The notes beneath the pieces are model-generated. The model had not been told where the DNA came from and made no database searches. It was given only the letters and a program-made list of their open reading frames with translations. 64,000 bases of DNA, taken from NCBI GenBank assembly GCA_964415355.1, contig CAYPYS010000001.1:215399-279398 (forward strand). The letters run 5' to 3'. The position numbers and the translations under genes are program-made. The DNA is from an uncultured Planctomycetia bacterium. Lineage in GTDB: Bacteria; Omnitrophota; Gorgyraeia; Gorgyraeales; Gorgyraeaceae. This document shows, piece by piece, positions 837 to 26,381 of this stretch. Positions within the stretch are counted from its first letter, which is position 1; each line of letters starts with the position of its first letter.

Positions 837-873
837 TAACTTTACATTTCAACAACGTTAAAGTGTAAAGTTA
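837..873. repeat. PIE copy 1 (37-bp imperfect palindrome TAACTTTACATTTCAACAACGTTAAAGTGTAAAGTTA)
   Basis: Read directly. It lies between the ychF-like stop (871-873, TAA = rc of the element's terminal TTA) and the purH start (819). The arms TAACTTTACA and TGTAAAGTTA are complementary. Confidence 0.9.
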
Positions 874-1872
874 GATGTTGAACCTGATGTTTATTATGTC
901 TCCGTCTTTTACTATATATTCCTTTCCTTCTACTTTCAGCAAGCCTGCTTCGCGGGCCTTGGGAACAGAGCCGCATTTAATAAAATCTTCGAAATTGAGC
1001 ACCTCTGCCCTTATAAAACCTCGCCTCATATCAGAGTGTACTTTACCTGCTGCCTCTATTGCCGATAATCCAGCTTTTAAATACCAGCCACGCGTTTCCT
1101 TTTCTCCGGTCGTGAAAAAGGTGACAAGATTTAATTTCTTTAAAATCAATTGCGAAAGCCGTTCTCTAAAATTATAGCCAGCGCCTAGTTCTTTTAAAAA
1201 TTTCTCTCTTTCTCCCGGAGCCAGCTCAAGAAGTTCTGATTCTGTCTTTCCAAAAAACCGAATAGACCTGATGTCTTTTAAGCTAGCGTGTTCCTCCAGC
1301 GCCTTTATTTTGGTTTCAGCCTCTTTATCCTCGTCTGAAACATTGATTGCCAAAATCAAGGGTTTTAAACTCAAAAATACCAGGCCGGAAAGCAGCTTTA
1401 TATCTTCGTTGCCTAGCCCGGCCTTTGATAAAAACTTTCCGTCCGAAGCGATCGCCTGACATTTCTCCAATATCTCTAGTTCACGTTCTGAGTCAGATTT
1501 CTTCCCCTCTTTTTCTATCCTCTTGATCCTATTTTGTATAAGGTCAAGGTCTGATATTATGATATCCGTAAGGCAATTTTCGAATTCCTTTTTAGGGTCC
1601 TGGCTAAAAAAAGCGCCTATAACACATATAAAAAGATCCACATCGTGCAGGTCAGACAGATCCTTTTTGCTAAAAGTCGAAGTGGATCCAATATCCACAA
1701 AGGTAAATTCAGGATATGTTGCTTTTTTCGACGAAAAAACTTCACGAATCTTATCTATGCGCGGATCCAATGCCCTAAAAACGCCGATGTTACCCGAGGC
1801 GTCTTTATTTAATAAGATTTTAAATAAAGTAGTCTTTCCGCTCTGAGGAGAGCCGATTATTCCTATCTTCAT
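871..1872 (-). CDS. YchF/Obg-family GTP-binding protein (divergent P-loop GSPQSGKTT; TGS-like C-terminus)
   Basis: 333 aa. MKIGIIGSPQSGKTTLF Walker A motif. C-terminal ...TRGWYLKAGLSAIEAAGKVHSDMRRGFIRAEV... resembles the YchF TGS domain. Its ATG at 1870-1872 nearly overlaps the upstream pseudopilin stop TAG (1874-1876), which suggests translational coupling. Confidence 0.7.
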   Translation of the reverse strand: MKIGIIGSPQSGKTTLFKILLNKDASGNIGVFRALDPRIDKIREVFSSKKATYPEFTFVDIGSTSTFSKKDLSDLHDVDLFICVIGAFFSQDPKKEFENCLTDIIISDLDLIQNRIKRIEKEGKKSDSERELEILEKCQAIASDGKFLSKAGLGNEDIKLLSGLVFLSLKPLILAINVSDEDKEAETKIKALEEHASLKDIRSIRFFGKTESELLELAPGEREKFLKELGAGYNFRERLSQLILKKLNLVTFFTTGEKETRGWYLKAGLSAIEAAGKVHSDMRRGFIRAEVLNFEDFIKCGSVPKAREAGLLKVEGKEYIVKDGDIINIRFNI

Positions 1873-2502: not shown

Positions 2503-2539
2503 TAACTTTACATTTTAACATTGTTGAAATGTAAACTTA
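2503..2539. repeat. PIE copy 2 (TAACTTTACATTTTAACATTGTTGAAATGTAAACTTA)
   Basis: Read directly. The stop of pseudopilin 2537..2917 (TAA, rc of TTA 2537-2539) lies in its right end. The next gene's start (2491) is 12 nt beyond its left end. Confidence 0.9.
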
Positions 2540-2917
2540 GCGAATGACATGCGTCACAAAATCCTTTGACCTTGTCCTGTTACGCTCGACCCAAGACACC
2601 GTCGCCGTGATCTTTCTGATATCGTCTGTAGATTCTACGCCTTCCAGCTCAGCTTCGTCAATAAATATCTCCCACTCAAAATCTCCCTCTGTCCCTGAAA
2701 GCTCTATCTTGGGTGGAAGCTCTGTTATTACATCAAATCCTGCCATCTTCACTTCTTCTAATTTATTCTGCCCCAAAAATGCAGCTTTTGTCATCATGCC
2801 TGCGCGGTATGAAGCACGGAGACCAACAGGAAATATCTGCAGAACGCCCACGAGCCCAATAGCCAGCACCCCTATAGCTATAATCAGTTCTAAAAGCGAA
2901 AATCCTCTTTTATGCAT
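2537..2917 (-). CDS. Pseudopilin (GspG/H-like) with prepilin-type N-terminal cleavage/methylation motif
   Basis: 126 aa. MHKRGFSLLELIIAIGVLAIGLVGVLQIF is a canonical G^FSLLE prepilin signal followed by a hydrophobic helix. Confidence 0.75.
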   Translation of the reverse strand: MHKRGFSLLELIIAIGVLAIGLVGVLQIFPVGLRASYRAGMMTKAAFLGQNKLEEVKMAGFDVITELPPKIELSGTEGDFEWEIFIDEAELEGVESTDDIRKITATVSWVERNRTRSKDFVTHVIR

Positions 2918-5248: not shown

Positions 5249-5285
5249 TAACTTTACATTTTAACATTGTTGAAATGTAAAGTTA
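5249..5285. repeat. PIE copy 3 (TAACTTTACATTTTAACATTGTTGAAATGTAAAGTTA)
   Basis: Read directly. The RND gene stop (5283-5285) lies in its right end. The coiled-coil gene start (5223) is 25 nt beyond its left end. Confidence 0.9.
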
Positions 5286-8200
5286 GGCGGGATGGTTCCG
5301 GGATTTCACTTTTATTATACCATAAATCCTGTTTTGAACAAATAATATTAATTGCATTGGATTAAAGCTTCTTCTGAGATCATCGAAGATCAAATAAAGG
5401 CTGGGAATTAAAAATAATGTGAGGACGGTGGAAGAGATAAGCCCCCCTATGACAGTTATCGCCAAAGGAGACCATAGATTAGCTGACTCGCTCCTGTCAA
5501 ATGCCATTGGCAAAAGCCCCAGGATAGTCGTAGAGGTAGTCATTACTATAGGCCTGAAGCGGTCTTCTCCTGCCTCCAGCACTGACTTTAAAATAGTCCC
5601 TCGTTTCCTTTTTTCTCTCGTCTTAAGCCTTTCCATTCTAGGAAGATGGAAAAGCGGGCCCCTTTTCTTTCTCCCTCTTAAAAAATTAATCCTGTCCACC
5701 AGGACAATGGAATTATTCACGACGATACCGGCCAGCATAATCGCACCTATTATAACTCCGCGGCTGATGGGTTTTTTCGTGATCTCAAGCGCCAAAACCA
5801 CCCCGATCACTGCCAGCGGAACCGCGATCATTATAACAAAAGGCTGCACATATGACTCGAAGAGGGACGCCAGCACAAGGTATACCAAAAATATCGTTAT
5901 CCATAAAACACCTGTGGGAAAGGCCCATAATTCCTTCTCGCTCTCCTTCAATCTTTCATAATCTCCGCCTATCCTATAATAATAATCCCTTGGGAATGTC
6001 ATGTCGGATAGATTCGACTTTATCCTCTTCTCCGCATCCACAAGCGTGCCCTTTGTAACAAGAGCCGTAATGTGCACGACCCTCATCTTATTTTTTCTTA
6101 CTATCTCACTCGAGCCTATCTGAGGATTAAACTCTGCCACCTGCTCAAGTATCAGAGGATCTCTGTCTTTCGAAAAAAGTATTAATTTTCTTAGATCATC
6201 GAGGCGCTCCCTGTCTTCTTTTCTTAGACGCGAAATAGTCTCTATCTCTCTCGCTTCCGTATGATATAATGTCGCTCTCAAGCCCCTTATCTCAGTATGA
6301 AGCGTCGTCGCTATGTCTCTGGTCGTCAAACCGAGCATGGCTGCCCTTTCTTTGTCGACTACGACGCCCCATTCCGGCCTGCCGCTGATCCTGGACATCC
6401 TGATATCTTCAAAGCCCTGCATTGCGCCTAGCCGCGTCGCAATCGAGACTGAAAGCTCCCTCAATACGTCATAATCATACCCATAAAGATCTACTACCAT
6501 CTCTTTCAAACCCTTTTCCTCTATTTCAGAAAAATAGATAAAACCCCCTCTGTATTTTTCTTCGACTGAGTGGGCGACATTCCGGATATCCTCTATGATG
6601 ACCTTTGTAGAACGCTGCCTCTGCATAAGAGGCAGAAGTTTTATATATATCTTCCCTGACCACGGCTCCACGCGTGAGGTAAAAGTCTTTATTTCCGGGA
6701 GCTCATCCAGCAACACCTCTATCTCCTTCACCATCTGGTCAGTCACATCGAGCTTTGCGCCAGGCTCCAGCTCGACAAAAATAGTAAATCTTCCCTCCTC
6801 TGTACCTATCATAAATTCCCTGTCCAAGAAAAATCCGCGTAACAAGACCAGCGCGAACAAGAAGAATGCTATCCCTGTAGCTATATATCTAAACCTCAGC
6901 CCGTAACCAAGAAATCTCCGATAATAAATCTTCAATCTCGTGAGCGTGTATTTTTTAAACATTAGTTTTTCGGATTCTTTCAGTCGAGGCATTATCTTCA
7001 TGCGGTCCGACAGCATGGGCACGAGCGTCAATGCTACGAACAGCGAGCTTAGGAGCGAATATGTCACTGTCAATGACAGCCCGCTCCACAGCATTCGCGT
7101 GGCCTTGTTTACAAAGACAAAGGGCAGGAATACGATTATAGTTGTAACAGTAGATGCGAATATCGCGAGGCCCACCTCGGATGTCCCGCCAACAACTGCG
7201 CTGGTGTATTTAGCCTTCCAGTCTTTTTTAGAATAATCGATAGCGCTTTTTTTCTTTTGAATATTATCGAGCACGACTATAGAATTGTCGACTAGCATGC
7301 CTATACCGAGCGCAAGGCCGCTGAGTGTCATAACGTTTATAGTTATCTTGTAAAAATACATCAGCGCAAACGTGAGCATGACTGATATGGGTATAGAAAC
7401 GGCTATGATCGAAGTCACATAGGGATCTCTCAAGAAGAGAAACAGTATCACAATGGCCAGGATCGCGCCGTACAGAAGAGACGTCCTAACAGCGACTATC
7501 GCCTCTTTTATCGCCTCAGATTTATTCAAAGTCGACTTTATAAATATATCCTTGTCCAGCGTCCTTTTTAAGCGGTTAAGCTCTTTCTGTATGCTCGATA
7601 TGACCTGGATTGTATTAGCGGTCGACTCTTTTTGAATATATATAGAGACGACGGGCTCTATGTCTGTCCTCGCGTAACTCGTGGGTTCCAAAAAAGAATC
7701 CCTCACCTTTGCGATTTCTTTAAGCCTGACTATGGAGCCATGAGCAGTGGTGGCGATGCCCAGATTTTTTATATCCTCGACAGACTGGAATTCTCCTATT
7801 ATCCTTACCAGAAATTTATTCTTGCCGTGCTTAATATCTCCTGCGAGCAAATTCAGATTGTTTACGCCAAGAAGATTGACAACCTGCTCAATAGGGACAT
7901 TGTACTGATGCAGTTTGTTCTTATCTATCTCGACGAGAATCTTTCGCTCCCTGCCCCCGTATATATCCACATTCGCAACGCCTTCCACGCGCAGCACTCG
8001 TTCTTTCACCTGTTCGTCTACGACTTTTCGCAACATCTCCGGCGAATAATTCTTTCCGGTGACTGCCAGGACCAGAATAGGCATGTCGGATTCTTTATAC
8101 TGTGCTATTATCGGTTTCTCTATCTCCTGCGGGAGTTTTTCTCTTATCTTTGAAAATTTTTCTCTAACTTCGAGCGCGGCAAAATCCATATTAGTGCCTG

Positions 8201-8492
8201 GCTCAAATTCAAGCCAGATCCTGGACTCTCCTGATTTTGAAGTGGAATAGATATTTTCCAGATGACTTACAGAGCTGACCGCCTCCTCAATGGGCTTAGT
8301 TACCATGACCTCTACTTCCTGCGGAGGCATGCCGCCTCTTATCCCGACGATAATACTTATGTCGCCGTAGGCTATGTTCGGCTTTAGATCAACTGGAAGG
8401 TTTAATAGAGACACGAATCCCACCAGCAATATGCCAATAAAAAGCATAGCTATGGTAACCGGCCTCCTGACTGAAAAACCTGATAGGCTCAT
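5283..8492 (-). CDS. Efflux RND transporter permease subunit (AcrB/MdtC/CzcA superfamily), second of a tandem pair
   Basis: 1069 aa. It starts MSLSGFSVRRPVTIAMLFIGILLVGFVSLLNLPVDLKPNI. It shows the 12-TM RND architecture with two large periplasmic loops, and internal motifs such as ...VLDNIVVVENI-like VVLDNIQKKK and AVPLAVIGVVLALEITKKPIS. Confidence 0.85.
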   Translation of the reverse strand: MSLSGFSVRRPVTIAMLFIGILLVGFVSLLNLPVDLKPNIAYGDISIIVGIRGGMPPQEVEVMVTKPIEEAVSSVSHLENIYSTSKSGESRIWLEFEPGTNMDFAALEVREKFSKIREKLPQEIEKPIIAQYKESDMPILVLAVTGKNYSPEMLRKVVDEQVKERVLRVEGVANVDIYGGRERKILVEIDKNKLHQYNVPIEQVVNLLGVNNLNLLAGDIKHGKNKFLVRIIGEFQSVEDIKNLGIATTAHGSIVRLKEIAKVRDSFLEPTSYARTDIEPVVSIYIQKESTANTIQVISSIQKELNRLKRTLDKDIFIKSTLNKSEAIKEAIVAVRTSLLYGAILAIVILFLFLRDPYVTSIIAVSIPISVMLTFALMYFYKITINVMTLSGLALGIGMLVDNSIVVLDNIQKKKSAIDYSKKDWKAKYTSAVVGGTSEVGLAIFASTVTTIIVFLPFVFVNKATRMLWSGLSLTVTYSLLSSLFVALTLVPMLSDRMKIMPRLKESEKLMFKKYTLTRLKIYYRRFLGYGLRFRYIATGIAFFLFALVLLRGFFLDREFMIGTEEGRFTIFVELEPGAKLDVTDQMVKEIEVLLDELPEIKTFTSRVEPWSGKIYIKLLPLMQRQRSTKVIIEDIRNVAHSVEEKYRGGFIYFSEIEEKGLKEMVVDLYGYDYDVLRELSVSIATRLGAMQGFEDIRMSRISGRPEWGVVVDKERAAMLGLTTRDIATTLHTEIRGLRATLYHTEAREIETISRLRKEDRERLDDLRKLILFSKDRDPLILEQVAEFNPQIGSSEIVRKNKMRVVHITALVTKGTLVDAEKRIKSNLSDMTFPRDYYYRIGGDYERLKESEKELWAFPTGVLWITIFLVYLVLASLFESYVQPFVIMIAVPLAVIGVVLALEITKKPISRGVIIGAIMLAGIVVNNSIVLVDRINFLRGRKKRGPLFHLPRMERLKTREKRKRGTILKSVLEAGEDRFRPIVMTTSTTILGLLPMAFDRSESANLWSPLAITVIGGLISSTVLTLFLIPSLYLIFDDLRRSFNPMQLILFVQNRIYGIIKVKSRNHPA

Positions 8493-8560: not shown

Positions 8561-8597
8561 TAAGTATACATTTTAACGTTGTTGAAATGTATACTTA
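8561..8597. repeat. PIE copy 4a, GTATAC-stem variant (TAAGTATACATTTTAACGTTGTTGAAATGTATACTTA), first of a tandem pair
   Basis: Read directly. Both arms carry GTATAC in place of CTTTAC/GTAAAG, a compensatory double change. Confidence 0.9.
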
Positions 8598-8599: not shown

Positions 8600-8636
8600 T
8601 AACTTTACATTTTAACAATGTTAAAGTGTAAAGTTA
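8600..8636. repeat. PIE copy 4b (TAACTTTACATTTTAACAATGTTAAAGTGTAAAGTTA), second of a tandem pair
   Basis: Read directly. The stop of RND gene 8634..12437 (TAA) lies in its right end. Confidence 0.9.
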
Positions 8637-11600
8637 TTTTAATGCGTACCACCTGCCTGGGCCGAGAGGGCCGTGGGCTTCGAGCATACCGCGATCCACA
8701 AGCTCCTTCAGGTCCCTGGCTGCAGTAGGCACAGATATATTGAAACGCTCAGCGTATTCTTTGCGCGTGATTTTCTTTACTTCTTTTAAAAGCTCTAAAA
8801 GCTCTTCTTGTCTCTTTTTGAGAAGCGGCAGTTCTTCTGGCGCTTGAGGAGTGGGCTCAGGTTCTGGCTCGGGAGGCGCGGGTTCTGGCGGAGCAGGTTC
8901 TGACAGAGCAGGTTCAGGTGGTGCAGGTGGCGGCGGTGGAGGCAATTCTATTTTTGGCTCTTTTGGCGGCTTTGGCGTCTCTGGTTCCTTTGGCAACTCT
9001 TTCTTTTCTTGCTCTTGCGCTCTTATCTGAGGTTTGTATTCTTCTGCCTCTTTCAGTGATTCCGGCTCCTTTGGCTCTTCTTTTGGTTTCTCTTTCTTCT
9101 TAATACTAAAAGGTTTTACTTTGACCTTGAACTCCCTCGCCTCATCCGCCGATAATTTAATATCCCGATCCCTTTTAACTACTGGCTTTGCAATTTTTTT
9201 TGCTGCAGTCCTTGGCGGCTCAGCCTTTTTAACCGGCATAAGTTTAAAAACCGGCTTTGGCCCAAAAATACCGGCCACGACCAAATATATGCAAGGTATA
9301 ACAAAAAGTGTCAATATCGTTGAAACCAAAAGTCCGCCCATGACCGTTATCGCCATTGGACTCTGTATCTCCGCCCCTTCTGCAATGCCTGCTGCCAGCG
9401 GCAAAAGCCCCAGCACCGTGGTCATTGTCGTCATGAGAATCGGCCTGAGTCGCATCTTGCCTGACTCTATAACCGCTTCCACGAGCTCGACGCCTTTAGC
9501 GCGCAGCCTGTTTATTGAATCAATCAAAATAATACCGTTATTGACAACGATACCTCCAAGGATTATCACGCCGAGAATCACAACGACGCTGACAGGGGTA
9601 CCTGTAATAAATAACGCGAACAACGCTCCGATCGCAGAAAGCGGCAGCGTAAACATAATAATAAACGGCTGCCACAATGACTCGAATTGCGAAGCCATTA
9701 TCATGTAGACCAAGAGCATCGAGAGAAGCAGCGCAAACCTCAGCGACTTAAAAGATTCGCTCATCTGCTGACTTTCCCCCGAGAGATCAATGGTAAAAAG
9801 CTTCTCTGAGTCTCCCATCTTGTGCGACACCACGATCTTTTCCCGCTCAATATCCTCTATCATGGCCTCTATATCCATGATCACTTTATCCAGCGCCCTG
9901 TCAGCGATGTTGGCAGTCAGAAGAATAACCCTCTGTTGATCCAGCCTCTTTATCTCGCTAGGCCCTACGCCTTGACTGATATAGGCGACCTCTGACAGCG
10001 GCACCTCGATCCCGAGCGGAGAATGCACAAGCACGTTTCTGATTTGCGAGAGGCGCGACCGGCTTTCCTTCCTCAGTCTGACCCTCACATCTATCTCGTC
10101 TCCTTCTTCCTTAAACTTCGTCGCGACCACTCCTTTTATAGCAGTGTGCGCGGCCTGAGCTATGGTTCCCGTCGACAGATTGTAAAGCGATGCCTTGTCC
10201 TTAAGCACATTGACCTTTGTCTCTGGCGAAGGACTGATGAGACTCGTGCGGATACCGTATATACCTTTAACGCTAGCGAGTTTTGCTTTGACATACCTGG
10301 AAAGTTCTTCTATCTTATCAAGGTTTTTTCCTTTTATTTCAATGACAATAGGCGCGCTGCCCTGCAGGGCTGTCTTAAAAATACTCTCCTGTAGAATATA
10401 TTCTACCTGCGCTCCCTGCAGATCCAGTCTGTCTAATTCGCGTTTCAATTTTTCTATTGTCTTAGATGTCGGAGGCTGGCCTTTTCCTTTCTCCAGCGTC
10501 ACTATTATCTGAGATTGGTTGGACCCCAATGTTTCAACGCCTTGAGAATAGTCTTTTCTCGCGCTCGAGCCAATATTAACAGCCACGCCTTCAACGCCCC
10601 CTGTTCCAAAAAGTACTTTTTCTATCTTTGCCACAGCACTGTCCGTGGCCTCCAGCTTTGTGCCGCTAGGCATGTTGACTTTCATGATAAATTCGCGCTG
10701 GTCTATCTTTGGCATAAATTCCTTGTCCAGCAAGGCAAAAAGCCACACGCTCACGGCAAAAATTATAAAAATAAGGATCAGAAAAGCCACTCTGAATCTT
10801 AAAATCGTAGGTATGAGTCTTGAATAAACAGGCTTGAGGCCGAATGTAAATTCGCTCTTTTCTTCTCTGGATGCAGCGTTCGAATTCGAAATAGATCTCT
10901 GGGCGCGAAGACCGCCAACGCCGGTCAGCCGCGGGATCAAAGAAAGTGCCACAACTAAAGACGCGATCAGCGAAAACGTGACAGTAAAGGCGAGCTCTCT
11001 AAACAGCTGTCCCGCGACGCCAACGACAAATATCATCGGCAAAAATACTGCGACAGTAGTGAGCGTCGACGAGAAAATAGCTCCCGACATCTCGCTGGCC
11101 CCGGACTTACTCGCGTCTTTTATATTTACGTCTTTGCCTTTTTGGAGATGGGCGTAGATATTTTCAATTACAACTATTGCGTTGTCCACGAGCATGCCTA
11201 TACCGAGGGCCAGCCCGCCAAGAGAAAGCATGTTCAGCGAAATACCGTTGAAATACATGAGGCAGAACGCGACCATGATGGATATCGGCATTGAAAACGC
11301 GACTATTAAAGAAGCCCTGACCCTTCTTATAAAAATAAAAAGCACTAAAAATGCGAGAGCGCCTCCGATAATCGCAGCCTGCATGACCCCGCGTATTGAT
11401 TTTTTAATCAGGAGCGACTGGTCATATATTATGTCTATTTCCATTCCTTCCGGCAGATCTGCTTCTATTTCCTTCAGCCTCGCTCTTACTTTTTGGGCTA
11501 CAAGCAGGATGTTAACGCCCGCTTGTTTCTGCACAGCCACTGAAACGTTTTCCCTGCCATTGTAACGCGAGATGCTCGTGCGGTCTTTAAATGTGTCCTT

Positions 11601-12437
11601 GAGTTCCGCTATATCCTTAAGGTATATCAGTCTTTCTCTTTCCTTTATATCCTGAGCTTGTCGGGGAAGGATCGCGCGTAGCCCTGAGTCCTCGATCTCC
11701 CTGTCTACAACGGTCTCCTCTATATCCGAAAGCACCTGGAATTCCCCCATTGTCCTTATGAGGTATTCGTAAAAATGCTCCTCTATTGTGCCTGCTGGAT
11801 AATTTATATTAGACGACCGCAGAGCCTCAACGACCTTTGTGATGGAAATATTGGAAGCGCGCAGCCTTCCTTCGTCTATGGAGACAAGTATTTCGCGCTC
11901 CAGTCCGCCGGCAAGGTTACACGACGCCACGCCGTCGACCTTTTCAAGTTCGTCTTTGATAAATTTTCTCGAGAGCCGCAGGAGTTCTGAAGGAGACTTG
12001 TCGCCTCTGACGCTCAACGTAAGGACAGGCAGCTCAAACGGGTTGAATTTCATTACTATCGGGTCTGAAGAACCTATAGGAAGTCGTTCTTTTATGAGGT
12101 CTATTTTTTCGCTCACGCCGAGAGAGGCAAAATCCATGCTCGTGCCCCAGCCGAATTCACCGGTGACGATCGAAACGCCTTCCTTCGAGATAGAGCTTAT
12201 GCGTTTCAGATTACTGACTGTGCCGACCGCTTCTTCGATAATCTTCGTAATCAGTGTCTCGACTTCTTCTGGCGCTGCGTTTTCGTATGTGGTAACTACT
12301 GTGAGTTGCGGATAGGTGATAGAGGGGAAGAGTTCCCTAGGAAGGCGCGTAAGCGAGATCAACCCTAATATCAGCGCCCCCAAAAAGAACATGGAGATCG
12401 TAACAGGCCGATTTACTGAAAATTCTGGAAGTCGCAT
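8634..12437 (-). CDS. Efflux RND transporter permease subunit fused to a C-terminal ~230-aa extension (K/E-rich, then a Pro-rich low-complexity segment, then a winged-helix HTH)
   Basis: 1267 aa. The RND core runs to about aa 1035. Then comes a ...KEKPKEEPKEPESLKEAEEYKPQIRAQEQEKKELPKEPETPKPPKEPKIELPPPPPPAPPEPALSEPAPPEPAPPEPEPEPTPQAPEE linker. The C-terminus is ...ITRKEYAERFNISVPTAARDLKELVDRGMLEAHGPLGPGRWYALK, a DeoR/Fic-C-type wHTH. Confidence 0.8.
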   Translation of the reverse strand: MRLPEFSVNRPVTISMFFLGALILGLISLTRLPRELFPSITYPQLTVVTTYENAAPEEVETLITKIIEEAVGTVSNLKRISSISKEGVSIVTGEFGWGTSMDFASLGVSEKIDLIKERLPIGSSDPIVMKFNPFELPVLTLSVRGDKSPSELLRLSRKFIKDELEKVDGVASCNLAGGLEREILVSIDEGRLRASNISITKVVEALRSSNINYPAGTIEEHFYEYLIRTMGEFQVLSDIEETVVDREIEDSGLRAILPRQAQDIKERERLIYLKDIAELKDTFKDRTSISRYNGRENVSVAVQKQAGVNILLVAQKVRARLKEIEADLPEGMEIDIIYDQSLLIKKSIRGVMQAAIIGGALAFLVLFIFIRRVRASLIVAFSMPISIMVAFCLMYFNGISLNMLSLGGLALGIGMLVDNAIVVIENIYAHLQKGKDVNIKDASKSGASEMSGAIFSSTLTTVAVFLPMIFVVGVAGQLFRELAFTVTFSLIASLVVALSLIPRLTGVGGLRAQRSISNSNAASREEKSEFTFGLKPVYSRLIPTILRFRVAFLILIFIIFAVSVWLFALLDKEFMPKIDQREFIMKVNMPSGTKLEATDSAVAKIEKVLFGTGGVEGVAVNIGSSARKDYSQGVETLGSNQSQIIVTLEKGKGQPPTSKTIEKLKRELDRLDLQGAQVEYILQESIFKTALQGSAPIVIEIKGKNLDKIEELSRYVKAKLASVKGIYGIRTSLISPSPETKVNVLKDKASLYNLSTGTIAQAAHTAIKGVVATKFKEEGDEIDVRVRLRKESRSRLSQIRNVLVHSPLGIEVPLSEVAYISQGVGPSEIKRLDQQRVILLTANIADRALDKVIMDIEAMIEDIEREKIVVSHKMGDSEKLFTIDLSGESQQMSESFKSLRFALLLSMLLVYMIMASQFESLWQPFIIMFTLPLSAIGALFALFITGTPVSVVVILGVIILGGIVVNNGIILIDSINRLRAKGVELVEAVIESGKMRLRPILMTTMTTVLGLLPLAAGIAEGAEIQSPMAITVMGGLLVSTILTLFVIPCIYLVVAGIFGPKPVFKLMPVKKAEPPRTAAKKIAKPVVKRDRDIKLSADEAREFKVKVKPFSIKKKEKPKEEPKEPESLKEAEEYKPQIRAQEQEKKELPKEPETPKPPKEPKIELPPPPPPAPPEPALSEPAPPEPAPPEPEPEPTPQAPEELPLLKKRQEELLELLKEVKKITRKEYAERFNISVPTAARDLKELVDRGMLEAHGPLGPGRWYALK

Positions 12438-12459: not shown

Positions 12460-12496
12460 TAACTTTACATTTCAACAACGTTAAAATGTAAACTTA
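12460..12496. repeat. PIE copy 5 (TAACTTTACATTTCAACAACGTTAAAATGTAAACTTA)
   Basis: Read directly. It lies between the adaptor-gene stop (12504-12506, 8 nt away) and the RND start (12437). GGAG is 10 nt upstream of that ATG. Confidence 0.9.
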
Positions 12497-12503: not shown

Positions 12504-13685
12504 TTATTCTTCTAGTATATTTTCCTGAACCTCTATTATATTAACGACCATACCATCTTTTAGTTCCTGGGAATAATCAACGACCACCAAATCGTCCTCG
12601 TATATTCCGAAGGAAATAACCGTATAGTCGCTTGTGATATAGTCCACGTCTACAGAGCGGGAAGAGACAACATTATCTTCGTCAACCGTAAATACACTAT
12701 AACCCTCGTCAGTCCTCTCGAGACTTAGACTCGGCACGACTATTGCATTATTAAATTCAGCGACGGTGATCATAGCCCTGCAAAACATTCCTGGCAAAAG
12801 CATGGCGCCCGGATTCTCTACCCTCACTCTAACAGTGAGCGTCCTGGACTTGCCCTCGATGACAGGAAATACATTGTCTATAACGCCCGTAAACGTTTCG
12901 CCCGGATACGCGTCGACCGTGACGGAAACGCCCTGTCCAAGCGCAATCTTATCAATATCTTTTTCAACTATCCCAAGCTCTATAAACACCTCTTTTATGC
13001 CATAGAGCGTAGCAATCTTGTCATGCGGCGTCACAAACTCCCCTACCTCGACATCGCGAGAACCTAGCACGCCGTCGCGCCACGCGTAGAGATCTGTCTT
13101 TACAAGTTCTGACTCTGCAGACTTTAGTTCGACCTTGGCTGACTCGACCTGAAGCGCCGCGCTCTTTGTCTCGAGTTCTACCTCTTCCAGCTTTGCCTTT
13201 ATAATGCCGCCTATATCGTAAAGATTTTTGTGTATATCCAGTTTCTTTTTTGCTGCCAATGCCTGAAGCTTTATAGACTCTAATTTGCTCTTGGCATAAT
13301 CCACTTTTAGCTGTGAGTCTTTTTTATCCAGGCTAGCTATCAAGTCTCCTTTGTAAATAATATCGCCTTCCCTGAAGCCTATAGTCTCTACCACGCCATT
13401 GATCTCGAATTTAAGCCCGATCTCCAGCGCGCCTTTTACTGTGCCCAGTACTGGCAGTTCATCCTTGAAATCCGTAGGCGCAGCCCTGTAACATCTGACA
13501 TGAGCAGCTTCAACAGCCTGAGCCTGCTGGCTGCTGTCAACGATCTCCATTTCCTGCCCTATGTCTTTTGTTTTCTGGATGCTATCTTTTGTTCTATGCC
13601 TTAACAATGAGAATCCCCACACTGCCAAAAAACCCACTACCCATAAAAGTATAAATCCTATGATTATCGTTTTCGACTTCTTCAT
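12504..13685 (-). CDS. Efflux RND transporter periplasmic adaptor subunit (membrane fusion protein, HlyD/AcrA family)
   Basis: 393 aa. It has an N-terminal TM anchor (IIIGFILLWVVGFLAVWGFSLL). Lipoyl/coiled-coil hairpin segments (...KLESIKLQALAAKKKLDIHKNLYD...) and a beta-barrel/MP domain follow. Confidence 0.8.
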   Translation of the reverse strand: MKKSKTIIIGFILLWVVGFLAVWGFSLLRHRTKDSIQKTKDIGQEMEIVDSSQQAQAVEAAHVRCYRAAPTDFKDELPVLGTVKGALEIGLKFEINGVVETIGFREGDIIYKGDLIASLDKKDSQLKVDYAKSKLESIKLQALAAKKKLDIHKNLYDIGGIIKAKLEEVELETKSAALQVESAKVELKSAESELVKTDLYAWRDGVLGSRDVEVGEFVTPHDKIATLYGIKEVFIELGIVEKDIDKIALGQGVSVTVDAYPGETFTGVIDNVFPVIEGKSRTLTVRVRVENPGAMLLPGMFCRAMITVAEFNNAIVVPSLSLERTDEGYSVFTVDEDNVVSSRSVDVDYITSDYTVISFGIYEDDLVVVDYSQELKDGMVVNIIEVQENILEE

Positions 13686-13723: not shown

Positions 13724-13760
13724 TAAGTATACATTTCAACAATGTTAAAATGTATACTTA
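13724..13760. repeat. PIE copy 6, GTATAC-stem variant (TAAGTATACATTTCAACAATGTTAAAATGTATACTTA)
   Basis: Read directly. The TolC-like gene stop (13758-13760) lies in its right end. Confidence 0.9.
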
Positions 13761-15593
13761 GGGCTTTGGGTGTGAGGCCAATCGGAAACTTCCGTCATCC
13801 AGAAACAAAGTATAGCCCGTAGCCCTGTTCAACTTTGCCAATGCCTGGTACAAGCTGCCGACCGCTTCTATATAAAATGACTTCTCGTCTGTAAGACTGA
13901 TGCGCGCCTGCATAAGCGCTGAATACGGTATTTCATTGAGCCCTGTTCGCGCTTTCGCGACCTTGAGTTCTTCTTCCCGATAATTCACCTTGTCCAGGTT
14001 TGCCCTTGCCTGTATCAAGCCTTTCTCGTATCCATAATAAGCATCTTTTATCTCTCTTATAATCGAGGCCTTTAGTTTCTTCAGCTCTTCCTTTGCCTTC
14101 TTAAATCCTATGCTGGCAGACTTTTTCTCAGAAAAACTCTGGAGGTTATCGAGGATCCCTATTTCAACAGACTGGCTCGCTGACTCTGTCCTGGTGCTTT
14201 CGCCGTGTTTCTCGCTCGTCTTGTCCTCTGTATAACCAGCGGATATTGTGTTGCCGCCAAGAGGCTTTGTCACTTTTAACCCAAGATACCAATCTTGATC
14301 CAATTCCAGCGTCTCTGTTTCAAACGCGCCGCCGGATTTTCCGTAAGAACCAGAGAGATCCACCTTAAACTGATCTTTGCTCTTCGCGATCTTCTGCCCA
14401 TAATCGTTAAAATCCACTATGTGCTTCTTTGCCTTGAAATCAGGCCTGTAACCAAACGCCAGATCCATGCACTGGTTCAATGTAACATCGACCTCTATCG
14501 CCTCAAGATAAGTAAGCTCTCCTAAGATCAAAACTTCACCCATATCGTCAGAGTCTTCGATGTTCATTGCCTGCGCGAGAGTCAATTTTGCCATGTCCAG
14601 CTCATTCTCGCTCGATGAGACCTGGTAGGCGATCTGCTTCATCTGTGAATGGACCTGCAAGAATTCTGTCTTTGTGCTCAAGCCCAGGTCAAACCTTTTC
14701 TTTGCCATCTCAAATATAGCCTCTGCGTCTTTTAATAGCTCACGCTGTTCCTTGAGGTTTATGCTCTTTACAATATATGAATAAAATGCTGTCTCTACGT
14801 CCATCCTCAAATCCTGCAATACCCTGTCATAATTTTCCTTTGAGGCCTTCATATTAGACATTGCCTGATCTACCGCATATTTAAGCCGCCAGCCATAATA
14901 CAGCGGGTGCTCGAACTTTATTTTGTACTCCTTGTCTGTGAAATCCTGGGTCGTGCCAGTAGTCTTACCTGTGGTCTCCATGTAATTCAAGCTCGCGGAC
15001 GGGTACAGCGCGCGGCGCGCCTCTCTGATCTTCAGCTCTGAGAGCTCTATTTCTTCCTTGGCTATGTCAGTGGATAAATTATTCTCAAGCGCGATATCTA
15101 TGGCCTGACCAATGTGCAGTTCCTCGGGCAGCGAGGCAGCAAACTCCGGCTCTGGTTCCCTGCTTTCAGTATAGTCCTCGCCAGGCTCTTTTTTAGGACT
15201 GGTCGCAAAGAATATCACAGGCACATCCAGCCATAGTTCTTCGGCGCCCAACTGGGCTGGAAAAGGCTTGAATCTATCTAATTTAAAAGTTGCCCTGAGA
15301 CAGATCTTGTCTAGATTTTTATTGCCTGAGGACTCAGAAACATAGATATCCCTTAGCTCACCCTTAGGAGAAAGAAGCATCTTAAGTTTCATTTCGCCCC
15401 TGGAATTAGACACAATATACCTCTCAGGCTTTCCTATGGCCTCATTTATATCCTTTGAAAGCCCAATTATATACTGTGTTATTGCTTCAATATTAGACGA
15501 AGATACTTGGTAGGCAAAAGATACAGTGCTGCATTGCGCTATAACTATAATAAATACAATAAGATACAATAATTTTCTATGCCTTGTAATCAT
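13758..15593 (-). CDS. Outer membrane efflux protein (TolC/OprM family) with an extra N-terminal ~130-aa domain
   Basis: 611 aa. It has a signal peptide (LLYLIVFIIVIAQCSTVSFA). Two TolC-like repeats with coiled-coil segments are present (...LYPSASLNYMETTGKT..., ...LTDEKSFYIEAVGSLYQALAKLNRATGY). It is the first gene of the tolC-MFP-RND-RND operon. Confidence 0.7.
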   Translation of the reverse strand: MITRHRKLLYLIVFIIVIAQCSTVSFAYQVSSSNIEAITQYIIGLSKDINEAIGKPERYIVSNSRGEMKLKMLLSPKGELRDIYVSESSGNKNLDKICLRATFKLDRFKPFPAQLGAEELWLDVPVIFFATSPKKEPGEDYTESREPEPEFAASLPEELHIGQAIDIALENNLSTDIAKEEIELSELKIREARRALYPSASLNYMETTGKTTGTTQDFTDKEYKIKFEHPLYYGWRLKYAVDQAMSNMKASKENYDRVLQDLRMDVETAFYSYIVKSINLKEQRELLKDAEAIFEMAKKRFDLGLSTKTEFLQVHSQMKQIAYQVSSSENELDMAKLTLAQAMNIEDSDDMGEVLILGELTYLEAIEVDVTLNQCMDLAFGYRPDFKAKKHIVDFNDYGQKIAKSKDQFKVDLSGSYGKSGGAFETETLELDQDWYLGLKVTKPLGGNTISAGYTEDKTSEKHGESTRTESASQSVEIGILDNLQSFSEKKSASIGFKKAKEELKKLKASIIREIKDAYYGYEKGLIQARANLDKVNYREEELKVAKARTGLNEIPYSALMQARISLTDEKSFYIEAVGSLYQALAKLNRATGYTLFLDDGSFRLASHPKP

Positions 15594-15897
15594 GTCTTAC
15601 CCTCGTGAAAAAGAAGTATACCATATGATTATATAATTGTCAATATTGGGGTTACAAAAATTTTGATACAGTTATGATACGGTTGGTTTGTTGGTGAGTC
15701 CCTTAGCATAATGAAGATATGCTAAGGCATGCTTAGGTCAGTCTTCGGAGGCCTCTTTATTTTTTGCGGACATGGTGCTTAACTTTACACTTTAACGTTG
15801 TTGAAATGTAAAGTTAAGCGAGCAAAAAATAAAAAGGAGAGAAAGCCGCTTCGCTGGGAGCGGCTGAGCGTCCTACGAAGACTGGCCTAAGCATGTC
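15594..15897. promoter_or_regulatory. Structured 304-bp intergenic region upstream of the efflux operon, with long inverted repeats bracketing a PIE copy
   Basis: Small hairpins: CTTAGCATAATGAAGATATGCTAAGG (~15700-15727), CTAAGGCATGCTTAGG (~15722-15738) and CCTAAGCATGTCTTAGG (~15885-15901). The left arm GGCATGCTTAGGTCAGTCTTCGGAGGCC (~15726-15753) is nearly the reverse complement of CGTCCTACGAAGACTGGCCTAAGCATG (~15869-15895). Inner inverted A/T runs are CTCTTTATTTTTTGCGG and GAGCAAAAAATAAAAAGGAG. A PIE sits at the centre. Confidence 0.6.
15780..15816. repeat. PIE copy 7 (TAACTTTACACTTTAACGTTGTTGAAATGTAAAGTTA; centre in flipped orientation)
   Basis: Read directly. The central 17-mer CTTTAACGTTGTTGAAA is the reverse complement of the copy-1 centre. 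Confidence 0.9.
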
Positions 15898-17168: not shown

Positions 17169-17205
17169 TAACTTTACACTTTAACGTTGTTGAAATGTAA
17201 AGTTA
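17169..17205. repeat. PIE copy 8 (TAACTTTACACTTTAACGTTGTTGAAATGTAAAGTTA)
   Basis: Read directly. The stop of ORF 17203.. (TAA) lies in its right end. Confidence 0.9.
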
Positions 17206-19974
17206 GAAGACACCGTGATAATAGATACGCAGTATATGCTGCGTATCCAGCGTTGGGTAAAAATCTCCAAAAGGACTCATAACTATACCTGGTATAGAAG
17301 TAGAATCGATGCTGCCCTCTCCAAACTGTATTACCAGCGCCCCATATTCGGTAACATTGTAATCCAGCTCCATAAATACATTGTGATGTTTCTCGTATTT
17401 CAAGTCTCCGCTTGTATTTAATCTATATAAGTTGTACGCCCTTGAAAAGGTATATTTCAGAAACCCTTTCAGCCTGGGATTAAATTTGTATTTAAAGGTC
17501 GTGCTAAATTGGTTCATGTTGTTATCCATGCTTTGCGCAAATTTAAAGTCGTTCTTGGTATAATCAAGATCTATGCCAAGATTTTCTAATGGCTTAAGCG
17601 AAACGCCGAGCCTGTAAATATTAAAACGCTCATATGGCGGAAGGTCAAAAAATCCCTGCGAATACAGAAAAGGTACTTCGCTTCTTATCTGCTGGCCATT
17701 TTCAGCCGCAGTGGAAAAACTGATATTATTCAAAAGCCACCTGGGATAATTATTTGTCGCGAATGTGGAATCATTTGTATTTTCGTATATGCCAAAAACG
17801 CTTATCCAGTCCCATTCCGACGGAGAATATTCTACGCCTAAAGAATATGTGGATACAGACGGGTCTTTCCCGTCCTCGATGGCGGCATTTGACTTGAATT
17901 CCCCTGTATCTGCGTCGTAGATGATAGGATCTATGCCTCCTTTGGTCTTTGGGAGGTCGTGATATATAAATAAAAACTTGGAAGTCCACTCAGGGTTGAT
18001 CTCAAGGGTATTTTCCTCTCTAAAAACGCCCTCGACATATTTATGATCAGAATCCCTCACGTATCTATAGTCGATTAAATTCTTCATCCTGCCATCCAGC
18101 GCATCTTCTTTCTCTAATCTGAAATTAACTGCATCCCTGCCCACATCCACTCCATCGCCTATTCTAAATGGCTCAATATCTTCATATCTTAAAGGATCAG
18201 AACCCCACCTGCTATATTCTATCGGTTCTTTAAAATGAATGTGCCTGCCCCAGTATTGATCGTTCCTTGTCTGCCTATAACTTGCCAGCCCCGGATCAAA
18301 ACCTTTATCCATATGCGTAAAGGCTAATCTCGCGTCGCCCCACGTCGTTCCTCTCTTAACTGCGAGATGGGCCGCGGTTCCGTTTCTCTCTGTCTCGTAA
18401 GTGCTGTCTGATCTATCATCTTCGCTCTTACTCACTGCGATCTCACCGACTATATTAGTGGTTGGATTTAAATCATAACTGGCATCTACGCCAAATACAT
18501 TATTATACGAATCAGCCTTATCGTCTTCGTAACCTATCCTGAACGTGTCTATAAAGCCTAACGTCAACCTATCATTTATAGGTGTCTTTATCCTTATCGC
18601 GCCAGGCACTGCGTTGACACTGTCATATTCCTGCCACAATCCTTTAGGCGTCGCAAAGGTCGTCTGCAGCTCGCTGCCCCCAGCAAACTCAGACGCAAAG
18701 GAAAAGCCTCTCAGGGCTGTAAGCCTTTTTAGTTCCTCGCTCTCTCTTGTAAAAGTTGACAGGTCGCTTGACCATTGTCCTCGAGTAAAAGAAGCTGCGC
18801 TTGAATTTAAATTTCCGGTCTTCCATTCATCAAGCCACGGACTCGGCTCCCAGTAGATGTGATGGTTCGAAAGCCCCAATGGGTCGTCTGAAGAAAGAGC
18901 CTGGTCTTCCAAGCCAAACAGAAACGCCCTGGCTTTATAACTATCGGTATTATAATCAAACCATAGCTCCCTCATTGGCTGAAAACTTGTATCTATATCC
19001 AGCTCGGGTATGCTAAAACTCTCTCCCCATGTATCATTGACCGAAGTAGAAACCACCCTTCCGTCAACAACCTTTAATTCAGGTATATCTATATCATCTC
19101 CATCACTCAATGTTGGTATGGTTTCGTTTATTGTGCTTCTGTTGCCTGACCAGTACTTTAACTCTATCTCGGTCGTGTCTCCAGCGCTGCCGGTTATTGT
19201 AGTCTTTTCTGTTTTTCCTACGAAACTCCAAGGGTCCACTGTGATGTCGGAATGGAAATTCAAACCTTCCTCACTTTTATTTGTATCAAACACGACCTTA
19301 AATCTGTCATACACTCTTTTATCGAATGTATTTGCCTTTGGAAATTGGTGGTCTATTACTCTGAAGTTGCGCTCGACATGGTCTGCATTTGTATCCTTCC
19401 AGATCAAATCATCGCCTGTAACGCCAAAGGCCATCTTGTATTCACCCTTTATCTCGCCGGGCGCGATATTGTCATTGAGCGCGTCGGCTATGGCTTTTAT
19501 TTTATCTTCAGAATAACCTGGCGGATACTGGTATCGCGGCTCTGTCTGTGGTTTTATCTGTGGCTGGTGGGAATATTCATATTCTTCTACAGGCTCATAT
19601 CTTTCCTCTATATGCACCGGTCTGTCAAATTCTGGATTATCGCTATACTCTCCTCTATATATAGGTTGCGGCAACGCCTCTGACTCCCTGCGCAGCTCAT
19701 CGCTTCTCTGGTAAGTATCCAGCATCCCGCGCGCGCGCAGCCTGAGCTCCGCGTTCACAAGATCCAGATACGTCTGCGCGTCAGCGTTCCGCGAGTCGAG
19801 CTCGATCGCGCGCTCGAGGATCACCTTGGCCTCGTGCAGCTTGCCGGCGCGATAGTAGTCCACGCCCCTGCTGGACAAGCCGAAGCTCACGGCAATATCC
19901 TGCTCTTGCGCAAAGCAGGGCGCTGCCGCCACTAATACCAACACTGTCACTATCGCCGCAAATTTCCTCATCAT
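17203..19974 (-). CDS. Large (~923 aa) secreted protein, putative outer-membrane beta-barrel / oligosaccharide channel; N-terminal TPR-like helix pair
   Basis: The likely start is MMRKFAAIVTVLVLVAAAPCFA (ATG 19972-19974). The track start (MLKCKLTRV) lies inside the PIE. It is beta-rich and Asp/Gly/Tyr-rich throughout. It ends in ...YYHGVF (aromatic C-terminal residue, typical of OMPs). It is adjacent to the glycoside-hydrolase genes. Confidence 0.5.
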   Translation of the reverse strand: MMRKFAAIVTVLVLVAAAPCFAQEQDIAVSFGLSSRGVDYYRAGKLHEAKVILERAIELDSRNADAQTYLDLVNAELRLRARGMLDTYQRSDELRRESEALPQPIYRGEYSDNPEFDRPVHIEERYEPVEEYEYSHQPQIKPQTEPRYQYPPGYSEDKIKAIADALNDNIAPGEIKGEYKMAFGVTGDDLIWKDTNADHVERNFRVIDHQFPKANTFDKRVYDRFKVVFDTNKSEEGLNFHSDITVDPWSFVGKTEKTTITGSAGDTTEIELKYWSGNRSTINETIPTLSDGDDIDIPELKVVDGRVVSTSVNDTWGESFSIPELDIDTSFQPMRELWFDYNTDSYKARAFLFGLEDQALSSDDPLGLSNHHIYWEPSPWLDEWKTGNLNSSAASFTRGQWSSDLSTFTRESEELKRLTALRGFSFASEFAGGSELQTTFATPKGLWQEYDSVNAVPGAIRIKTPINDRLTLGFIDTFRIGYEDDKADSYNNVFGVDASYDLNPTTNIVGEIAVSKSEDDRSDSTYETERNGTAAHLAVKRGTTWGDARLAFTHMDKGFDPGLASYRQTRNDQYWGRHIHFKEPIEYSRWGSDPLRYEDIEPFRIGDGVDVGRDAVNFRLEKEDALDGRMKNLIDYRYVRDSDHKYVEGVFREENTLEINPEWTSKFLFIYHDLPKTKGGIDPIIYDADTGEFKSNAAIEDGKDPSVSTYSLGVEYSPSEWDWISVFGIYENTNDSTFATNNYPRWLLNNISFSTAAENGQQIRSEVPFLYSQGFFDLPPYERFNIYRLGVSLKPLENLGIDLDYTKNDFKFAQSMDNNMNQFSTTFKYKFNPRLKGFLKYTFSRAYNLYRLNTSGDLKYEKHHNVFMELDYNVTEYGALVIQFGEGSIDSTSIPGIVMSPFGDFYPTLDTQHILRIYYHGVF

Positions 19975-19982
19975 CACCCTTG

Positions 19983-20019
19983 TAAGTTTACATTTCAACA
20001 TTGTTGAAATGTAAACTTA
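19983..20019. repeat. PIE copy 9 (TAAGTTTACATTTCAACATTGTTGAAATGTAAACTTA; G..C paired stem variant)
   Basis: Read directly. It is followed by a GC-rich segment CGTCGCCCGCCGCGCTACCTGCGCAGCCGCGCC (20021-20053). Confidence 0.9.
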
Positions 20020-21269: not shown

Positions 21270-21282
21270 CTCTCTCACCCCT

Positions 21283-21319
21283 TAACTTTACACTTCAACA
21301 TTGTTGAAATGTAAAGTTA
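21283..21319. repeat. PIE copy 10 (TAACTTTACACTTCAACATTGTTGAAATGTAAAGTTA), flanked by CCCC/GGG extending the palindrome
   Basis: Read directly. A second hairpin GGTCTGGG...TGCCGACAGGCA...CCCAGACC follows immediately (21321-21356). Confidence 0.9.
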
Positions 21320-22087: not shown

Positions 22088-22170
22088 TTTCTCCTCCTTG
22101 TGCATTTTTAAATTTTGCATTTTTAAATGTTAATTTTGCAATGTTAACCTCTTTACTGCACCTCCTTCCT

Positions 22171-24486: not shown

Positions 24487-24522
24487 AACTTTACATTTCA
24501 ACAACGTTAAAGTGTAAACTTA
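24486..24522. repeat. PIE copy 11 (TAACTTTACATTTCAACAACGTTAAAGTGTAAACTTA)
   Basis: Read directly. It directly abuts the GH start codon. The ABC permease start (25375) is on the other side, so this is not a stop-overlapping copy. Confidence 0.9.
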
Positions 24523-26344: not shown

Positions 26345-26381
26345 TAAGTTTACACTTTAACGTTGTTGAAATGTAAACTTA
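26345..26381. repeat. PIE copy 13 (TAAGTTTACACTTTAACGTTGTTGAAATGTAAACTTA)
   Basis: Read directly. A family-C element follows immediately. Confidence 0.9.

Follow-up and report, generated by a model that had tools for sequence, protein, structure and literature searches.

Introduction

Bacterial MITEs typically carry terminal inverted repeats (TIRs) and 5′-TA-3′ termini, are rich in A+T and show target duplications (PMC2229807). Elements of the IS630 family insert into a TA dinucleotide with duplication of the TA (PMC2170065), and a passage of the same article that refers to Tenzen and Ohtsubo 1991 gives TA within CTAG as the target preferred by IS630. MITEs derived from IS630/Tc1-mariner elements, such as RUP of Streptococcus pneumoniae, which is mobilised by IS630-Spn1, and the Correia/NEMIS elements of Neisseria are the repeats with which a short repeat from Candidatus Omnitrophota is compared here. 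The repeat shares with them the presence of TIRs, 5′-TA-3′ termini, A+T richness and an apparent TA duplication (PMC2229807, PMC2170065), as well as an intergenic location near genes, transcripts that form hairpins, and stop codons in all frames, the latter being a property of RUP and of the 155-bp Correia element. The target sites reconstructed for it, TTAA and CTAG, are of the N-TA-N type, similar to the CTAG used by IS630. It differs from RUP and Correia in being shorter (33 bp plus TA, as against ca. 100–155 bp), with only a 3-nt centre inside, in lacking sequence similarity to them and in residing in a different phylum, Omnitrophota. About 40–55% of its copies, and locally 100%, lie exactly on stop codons; to our knowledge, such a stop-sited fraction has not been described for RUP/Correia-type families.

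Other small repeats resemble it in part. What defines the REP superfamilies, which are G+C-rich, is a tag, GTAG or CGTC, that each carries at one of its ends (PMC3733652). REP and BIME sequences of Enterobacteria and Pseudomonas are, like the Omnitrophota repeat, imperfect palindromes of 20–40 nt, present in high copy number, extragenic at 3′ ends within operons, transcribed as stable hairpins and occasionally arranged as doublets; unlike it, they are G+C-rich and tagged with GTAG/CGTC (PMC3733652), have no TA flanks and do not usually overlap stop codons. Intrinsic terminators also place a hairpin directly downstream of a gene, but the stem of the repeat is A+U-rich and has no U-tract, and the majority of copies are found within operons, with the next RBS only a few bases away. 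MIRUs of Mycobacterium tuberculosis lie between cistrons and overlap, at their ends, the stop codon of one neighbouring gene and the start codon of the other; they are direct tandem repeats of 46–101 bp with small ORFs, without palindrome or TA duplication. The repeat is similar to MIRUs in lying within operons, in supplying or overlapping the upstream stop and, sometimes, in contributing to the next start, as in the ATG at copy 24486 described below. A literature search found no paper on the sequence itself or on palindromic repeats in Omnitrophota.

Anatomy and genomic setting of the element

The window, that is, the whole stretch of 64,000 nt that was analysed, was assigned to Candidatus Omnitrophota by homologues of its YchF and permease proteins. 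All of its genes are on the minus strand. Pfam searches identified a YchF-like GTPase, type II secretion pseudopilins, GspF, two RND pumps (one with a C-terminal HTH), a membrane-fusion protein, a TolC-like protein, a ROK regulator, a porin-like protein, glycoside hydrolases, a sugar ABC operon, a PilZ protein and the 3′ part of an ORF of 11,871 aa.

The element is a 37-nt palindrome of the form TAA(C/G)TTTACA...TGTAAA(G/C)TTA. The window contains 16 copies with TAA...TTA ends, 15 between positions 837 and 28304 and one at 34731, plus a degenerate one at 48885; the copy at 5249–5285 reads TAACTTTACATTTTAACATTGTTGAAATGTAAAGTTA. Each is made of an A+T-rich 17-bp stem with ends TAA(C/G)...(G/C)TTA and a 3-nt centre, and the 17-nt arms, which constitute the TIRs, are near-perfectly complementary in 16/16 window copies and in 104/104 copies of a pooled set combining the window with MAG loci. 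Variation among the window copies concerns mainly positions 4/34 (C/G) and 6/32 (T/A) and four transition sites. Stem pairing is preserved by double changes, TAAGTATACA occurring together with TGTATACTTA, and the same holds for positions 4/34. Stop codons are present in all three frames of both strands in 93/104 pooled copies. Both orientations relative to the gene occur with similar frequency, and no strand or orientation bias was observed.

In eight cases the terminal triplet of a copy is the stop codon of the upstream gene. The minus-strand ychF-like gene (871..1872) has its TAA stop in the triplet 871–873 of the copy at 837..873, and purH starts 17 nt past the far end of this copy. The triplet 2537–2539 of copy 2503..2539 is the stop of a pseudopilin gene (2537..2917), and 5283–5285 of copy 5249..5285 that of a minus-strand RND transporter gene (5283..8492). 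A tandem pair follows, its members separated by 2 nt: the first, at 8600..8636, supplies through 8634–8636 the stop of the RND+HTH gene (8634..12437), and the second, a TAAGTATACA variant at 8561..8597, supplies none. The TolC-like gene (13758..15593) stops on the triplet 13758–13760 of copy 13724..13760, whose palindrome is lengthened by the flanks CCC...GGG and which is followed by a TTCCCGC hairpin at 13703–13720. In copy 17169..17205, lengthened in turn by the flanks CTTC...GAAG, the triplet 17203–17205 directly follows the codon for the last residue, Phe, of the porin-like gene (17203..20001) and is its stop. Permease 1 (25444..26331) stops on 25444–25446 of copy 25410..25446, at a junction that is empty in relatives, and the 11,871-aa ORF (28302..63917) on 28302–28304 of copy 28268..28304. 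Two copies lie within this giant ORF. The diverged one at 34731..34767 is in frame (..F NFTLQQRWNVKL E..), with its in-frame stop changed to TGG, and the degenerate one at 48885..48921, with 7 mismatches, is in the same frame and holds no stop.

Coincidence of element ends with stop codons

A previous, sequence-only reading of the window had counted 10 of the 14 genes upstream of a copy as being stopped by its terminal TTA. The phenomenon is real, although the true count is 8/14, corresponding to genes 871, 2537, 5283, 8634, 13758, 17203, 25444 and 28302. Two genes included in the earlier figure have stops of their own: the GH gene at 20061..21278 ends in a TAA located 41 nt from the element end at 20019 (copy 19983..20019), and the SBP gene at 26420..27751 in a TAG located 38 nt from the element end at 26381 (copy 26345..26381). 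For the other four upstream genes the copy lies downstream of the stop, at 4 nt from the TAG that ends permease 2 (24527..25375; copy 24486..24522), 7 nt from the TAA that ends the MFP gene (12504..13685; copy 12460..12496), 48 nt from where gene 21368..22120 stops (copy 21283..21319) and 81 nt from the ROK stop at 15898 (copy 15780..15816). The accompanying observation that both ends of the palindrome read TAA outward was borne out in 102/104 pooled copies.

In the pooled set, which comprised 104 distinct copies and in which genes of at least 90 aa were defined by a greedy ORF call, 43 element ends, belonging to 42 copies, coincided with a gene stop, one copy ending two convergent genes. The frame of the stop within the element was frame 0 in 43 cases, and the other two frames accounted for 5 and 7. 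Genes not stopping in the element had stops scattered up to several hundred bases upstream. In L152 and L153, from two further relatives, for which the database's own gene calls were used, 7/7 copies fell exactly on the stops of argF, argH, lysA and dapA; these seven copies belong to a single arg/lys operon. No strict copies were found deep within called genes. Occupancy of intergenic regions was 13/27 for convergent, 71/235 for co-directional and 1/9 for divergent gene pairs. TAA was the commonest stop, ending 208/323 called ORFs.

Expected numbers were derived for 78 evaluable copies from the window and a second genome, of which 40 lie on a stop-codon TA. If any intergenic position were equally available, 9.1 such copies would be expected, whereas a uniform choice among intergenic TAs, that of the stop included, gives 30.6 (sd 2.8; z = 3.4). 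After removal of the element, intergenic regions have a median length of 31.5 nt and contain ca. 3 TA dinucleotides. Since the TA-based expectation already accounts for 30.6 of the 40 matches, stop-siting mostly follows from TA specificity and genome compaction, and the excess over it is modest.

Comparison with orthologous genes and empty sites

Two origins had been suggested for the coincidence: insertion of the element at a pre-existing TA or TAA, or trimming of genes so that they end within it. Comparison with orthologous genes, the check put forward in that earlier reading, favours the former; trimming applies to a minority of genes and is not the general case. The Pfam model of the YchF C-terminal domain is matched over its full length (1–84/84), the protein ends in ...IRFNI, and 83 homologues end in ...RFN(I/V). 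Permease 1 ends in ...HMNKA, at a position shared with the ends of dozens of homologues, which read ...K(Q/K)A/G. LysA, PNPase and RecJ of MAG CAYULJ01 reach the ends of the corresponding NCBIfam models. A syntenic relative (L154–L157), whose YchF is 73% identical to that of the window, contains zero copies in ca. 39 kb. YchF, permease 1 and the porin (...YHGVF in the window, ...YRGVF in the relative, with Phe as terminal residue) have the same last residue in both genomes; RND2 and the TolC-like protein, which have variable tails, end within 1 aa of their counterparts, and the RND+HTH protein 8634 is 2 aa shorter in the window.

Several orthologous junctions are empty. Those between ychF and purH in L065, L068 and L114 consist of NNN TAA followed by an RBS and ATG: GTT TAA GAAAGGGGGAGTG ATG in L065 and ATC TAA AGGAGGTAAGG ATG in L068, with similar arrangements in L114 and L085. 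The junctions between permease 1 and permease 2 are likewise empty in L145, L146 and L149, with GCA TAA AGGCGTTATG and similar sequences (GCA TAA AGGCGTT ATG in L145, GCG TAA ATT ATG in L146 and GGA TAA TTCT ATG in L149). Deletion in silico of the element together with one TA recreates junctions of this kind in the window: ATC TAA AGAGAAGGGGGGAGTA ATG for ychF, TTC TAG AAGGG for the porin and GCC TAG GATT for the permease. The restored stops are those actually used by the element-free relative (TAA for YchF, TAG for the porin and TAG for the permease) in 3/3 exact comparisons. The same operation yielded TAA or TAG in 7/8 window cases and in 40/43 pooled ones (TAA 35, TAG 5), a rate that is partly due to the CTTAAG context.

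When all 37 nt are removed, YchF, the porin and the permease are left without a stop, whereas removal of 35 nt brings the orthologous TAA or TAG back. Direct duplication of 3 bp (TAA) or of 4–6 bp (TTAA, CTTAAG) was considered and rejected as incompatible with window copies flanked as C-TAAC...GTTA-G. Because the 37-nt deletion loses the stops and only TA is both direct and symmetric, these data support insertion onto a pre-existing stop, which would have been converted from TAG to TAA where applicable. Duplication of the TA is in turn suggested by this symmetry and by the empty orthologous sites, which are found in fairly distant relatives: the genomes compared belong to other species, with 57–86% protein identity, and are not isogenic strains.

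Some genes do end inside the element. In CAYULJ01 there are 12 such genes, with element-encoded tails LKFTL* or LSLHFNNVKV*, and for most of them the reconstructed native frame would end 2–21 codons later. In the window the sole exception to stop restoration is copy 8600, where removal of the element and one TA leaves AAA TAC GTA..., with no stop. Heavy truncation of the corresponding RND+HTH gene 8634 had been suspected because Pfam HTH_DeoR was matched only over 1–45/57, and was rejected: in a representative search the C-terminal HTH domain of this type was found to end at the protein end in many proteins, so the tail of 8634 is otherwise complete. Derivation of this tail from a 267-nt repeat of the giant ORF was also rejected, as blastp gave no match.

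Spread among Omnitrophota and signs of mobility

In a scan of one genome per species, at least four MAGs of Omnitrophota contained the core pattern, most of the matches listed being from CAYULJ01. At the DNA level the element is all that the window and CAYULJ01 share. This, together with its absence from ca. 39 kb of the syntenic relative, indicates that it is dispensable and is gained or lost as a unit. Relatives were retrieved from metagenomes with an alignment query, a single YchF query having found none. Among ten contigs of the same species (L055–L064), which are 99.9–100% identical, no filled/empty polymorphism, and hence no sign of recent mobility, was found. Between species the state of a site varies: it may hold a copy, a different or a flipped one, a mere remnant, or nothing. 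L053 carries a different variant 5 nt past the ychF stop and a 14-nt remnant (TAAGTTCACACTTA) at the pseudopilin stop, and the TAACT + TAAG arrangement behind its ychF could reflect a footprint with a later re-insertion; in L054 another small hairpin is nested within a copy, and in more distant Omnitrophota related palindromes (TAAGTTGACACTCTGACAATGTCAGAGTGTCAACTTA) lie 1 nt past the ychF stop.

A search through solo half-sites in the fetched loci (ca. 0.4 Mb) revealed no full-length parent IS or transposase with matching ends; all solo half-sites were copies interrupted by other small hairpins. The sole match in a scan of viral contigs, L158, has nothing but the central palindrome TACATTTTAACATAGTTAAAATGTA in common with the element, the TAA(C/G) ends being absent, and was judged unrelated.

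Origin of the association with stop codons

We consider it probable, at roughly 0.6, that the element represents a new MITE-like family that behaves as an IS630/Tc1 passenger, IS630/Tc1 being the candidate transposase class that we infer. Its core would comprise 33 bp, A(C/G)TTTACA...TGTAAA(G/C)T, essentially two TIRs of 15–17 bp, within a duplicated target TA. As the core begins with A and ends with T, each junction reads outward as TA plus A, hence TAA, on either strand. A non-autonomous repeat of this kind would insert at TA in a short palindromic context, namely TTAA, CTAA/TTAG or CTAG, and CTTAAG in one genome. Where the target is the TA of a gene's TAA or TAG stop, TAA would be regenerated at the same codon with the protein unchanged, and the displaced third base of the stop (A or G) would land past the far end of the element. 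Insertions inside genes would be purged, with purifying selection presumably acting as the filter, and, since intergenic space in Omnitrophota genomes is very short and holds few TAs, the stop-codon TA would be among the few targets tolerated. TTAA and CTAG, each of which holds a stop triplet on both strands, would add to stop-siting. The finding is real, if over-counted at first, and on this account it is for the most part unremarkable: the element targets TA, and in a very compact genome hardly any insertion is tolerated except at TAs in stop codons or between genes.

The reconstructed targets of the 104 copies are TTAA in 72, CTAA/TTAG in 14 and CTAG in 7, with CTTAAG in 65. Just outside the TAs, the first two bases of the flanks pair with each other more often than do those of shuffled flanks; the effect is absent from the third base, and it reaches codon positions 2 and 3. 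In CAYULJ01, genes ending in xCT TAA make up 25/34 of the element-stopped ones versus 10/251 of the others. Orthologues of the stop-overlapped genes of CAYULJ01 were sought among the fetched loci, and lysA alone was found. A terminal Ala in LysA is confined to the element-bearing clade, most homologues ending in I, L or V. The orthologous lysA copy has covarying flanks in three genomes (GCT...A versus GCC...G) with positions 4/34 swapped, and its core is flipped between two close relatives; covariation of the flanks, T..A versus C..G, occurs at the orthologous copies of both lysA and argH. Simple insertion at TA does not wholly account for these flank data or for the G.U surplus given below; they fit a strongly palindromic 6-bp target with hot-spot turnover, outward extension by template switching, or selection on the hairpin.

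That the palindrome is a selected, REP-like functional hairpin at cistron ends, with the stop embedded in its stem and mobility being only its means of spread, is in our view unlikely, even though several observations are in its favour. Such a hairpin could stabilise the upstream mRNA, serve as an RNase processing site, or modulate termination or translational coupling; E. coli REPs lying within ca. 15 nt of a stop reportedly reduce expression of the upstream gene. The RNA hairpins of the element are stable (−13 to −29 kcal/mol, with z from −3.6 to −11), their pairing is kept by double changes and extends by complementarity two bases into the flanks, and the flanks covary at orthologous lysA and argH copies. 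The same junctions are filled in several species, occupancy is 13/27, 71/235 and 1/9 at convergent, co-directional and divergent junctions, respectively, and stop matches number 40 against the 30.6 of the TA-based expectation. In the mRNA sense, G.U pairs outnumber A.C mismatches 33 to 17 (p = 0.03), in a count that does not represent independent events because the copies are related by descent. The excess over the TA-based expectation and the G.U surplus hint at something beyond neutral insertion.

Against selection on the hairpin, the syntenic relative runs these operons without a single copy, so the element can be dispensed with; the two orientations are similarly frequent and orthologous copies can flip; and about half of the copies are off stops, at distances of 4 to 81 nt in the window. 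By its features the element is not an intrinsic terminator, as it has no U-tract and its 3′ flanks are RBS-like or contain other hairpins. None of the 22 terminator-like calls in positions 1–20000 fell on a copy, and Rfam gave 0 matches at gathering score over the whole window. Moreover, in quasipalindromes, template-switch mutation can produce compensatory changes and perfect the palindrome outward without selection (PMC7202029, PMC3820800). A more elaborate version, in which a structure-maintained stop-codon hairpin with a stem starting in the last sense codon punctuates Omnitrophota operons and is occasionally exapted as coding sequence, appears decidedly unlikely to us. Were it true, the TAA would lie within the stem, compensatory change would preserve the pairing even at codon positions 2–3 of the last residue, the hairpin would influence termination, coupling or mRNA processing between cistrons, and exaptation would take the form of C-terminal tails or of the stop-less in-frame copies in the 11,871-aa ORF.

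A different route of mobility is that of REP/REPIN sequences, moved as single-stranded hairpin DNA by a RAYT or an IS200/IS605-like Y1 transposase without target duplication, in which case TAA would be a cleavage or target motif instead of a duplicated TA. The size of 37–41 nt, the near-perfect palindromy, the high copy number, the extragenic location and the tandem doublet 8561/8600 would suit this route, and hairpin-dependent mobilisation would explain the kept pairing. Hairpins tagged with GTAG, GTAGGGGAG-n8-CTCCCCTAC, are present in the window at 2942–2967 and 28226–28251, which means that a REP-mobilising system may exist in this genome. The element itself is A+T-rich and has TAA(C/G) at both ends, in contrast to the GTAG or CGTC tag on a G+C-rich palindrome that distinguishes REPs. 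Without duplication, YchF, the porin and the permease would lose their stop on removal of the 37 nt, whereas removal of 35 nt restores it. No strand or orientation bias was seen, and no Y1 transposase or RAYT was found among the window genes scanned with Pfam. A REP/REPIN-type origin is therefore judged very unlikely, and insertion as a TA-targeted MITE-like element is preferred to it.

The weakest account, an artefact of mechanical ORF calling or chance, given that TAA is the commonest stop (208/323) in an A+T-rich genome and that stops in all frames of 93/104 copies would end any spurious ORF, is practically untenable, as the eight window genes are long, Pfam-supported and have ends matching those of their orthologues, frame 0 is used 43 times versus 5 and 7, independent database gene calls give 7/7, 40 matches are observed versus the 9.1 expected for any position, and the orthologue comparisons already refute it.

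Consequences for annotation

A large share of the stop codons in these Omnitrophota genomes is physically part of a mobile repeat, which affects stop-codon usage statistics, operon boundary prediction and C-terminal annotation. Under TA-targeted insertion, native TAG stops would have been turned into TAA, and some proteins have acquired element-encoded tails (LKFTL, LSLHFNNVKV). With 33 bp plus TA, the element would rank among the smallest MITE-like elements, and it would offer a clean natural case in which specificity for TA in TTAA or CTAG and genome compaction funnel insertions onto stops. A structural role in addition would be compatible with the covarying flanks, the copies flipped at orthologous sites and the G.U bias. 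The contribution of the element to coding sequence extends in one case to a start codon: copy 24486 lies on the TA of TATG, and consequently the ATG of the downstream GH gene begins with the last A of the element. In relatives, the same junction is an ATGA overlap.

Gene junctions with and without the palindrome

Loci L154–L157 (JGI 3300009127, 3300009311 and 3300009320) come from a relative sampled within the same series. Between the giant ORF and folE, a stretch of about 39 kb, its gene order is that of the window, and zero copies of the 37-nt palindrome were found there. Gene junctions in this relative are much tighter than those of the window, with several overlaps of 4–14 nt. An additional MFS gene is present, and a GIY-YIG gene sits between both permeases.

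In the window, the palindrome also contributes to a start codon. The glycoside hydrolase gene downstream of the copy at 24486–24522 has an ATG (24484–24486) that takes its A from the last A of the copy, and translation from this codon gives a protein starting MRKINLVV; the mechanical ORF list places the start at a TTG within the element (24504) rather than at this ATG. At the equivalent junction of element-free relatives, a stop/start overlap, GGATGA, is found.

The ychF-purH junction was compared with those of relatives showing 88–89% identity (L053 3822–3870 and L054 2551–2625). L054 carries the same copy on the ychF stop codon, its left arm containing an inserted 34-nt CCCGC...GCGGG hairpin. 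In L053, TAA-CT is followed by a different variant of the palindrome (TAAGTATACA...); speculatively, the resulting TA-ACT-TA would resemble a Tc1-type excision footprint with later re-insertion. In more distant Omnitrophota (L086, L087, L089, L090/L091/L095 and L075/L077/L081/L082), palindromes related to the element yet distinct from it occupy this junction 1 nt past the ychF stop, within about 1–40 nt of it, with the forms TAAG(T/G)T(G/T)ACACTCTGACAATGTCAGAGTGT(C/A)A(A/C)CTTA and CAACTTGACA...TGTCAAG. These distant palindromes suggest that the element belongs to a superfamily and that the ychF junction is a repeatedly used site.

Palindromes within the giant ORF

The giant ORF occupies 28302–63917 on the minus strand as one continuous frame; it comprises 11,871 codons and extends past the window edge. 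Two decayed copies of the palindrome lie inside it, at 34731–34767 and 48885–48921, both read in the same frame and encoding ..NFTLQQRWNVKL.. and ..KLALQQCQSGSL.., respectively; their in-frame stop codons are replaced by TGG and CAA. They represent either tolerated, repaired in-frame insertions or the remains of a fusion of adjacent ORFs through loss of an element-borne stop. The counterpart of the giant ORF in L156 has 8,588 amino acids and a different C-terminus. The giant ORF further contains seven to eight tandem repeats of 267 nt (89 aa) at 39831–41950, diverged copies of which recur near 54291 and at 61029–61669, and seven repeats of 93 nt (31 aa) at 29475–30383.

Other modules and hairpins

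The RND transporter gene at 8634–12437 ends in a DeoR-like HTH module comprising its last 213 aa (8634–9275). In a library of 1.8 billion proteins this module gave 59 matches at E ≤ 1e-10; its other carriers include many otherwise unrelated proteins of 60–2,900 aa, in which it is nearly always at the extreme C-terminus.

A second family of small hairpins, TCATTCCCGC-nnnn-GCGGGAA(T/C)CC, directly adjoins the palindrome at several sites. Its members are found in the window at 13703–13720, 25389–25406 and 8508–8547, the last with another hairpin nested within, as well as in L010 (about 3296–3361) and after ychF in L053. The composite of palindrome and TCATTCCCGC hairpin is 86–92% identical over 63–66 nt between the window and CAYULJ01, a second palindrome-rich Omnitrophota MAG.

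GTAG-tagged, REP-like hairpins, GTAGGGGAG-(C/A)CTTAAG(G/T)-CTCCCCTAC, are located downstream of gspF (2942–2967) and of the giant ORF (28226–28251). The CTTAAG of their loop is also the most frequent reconstructed target of the palindrome (the sequence left after deletion of the element and one TA) in CAYULJ01.
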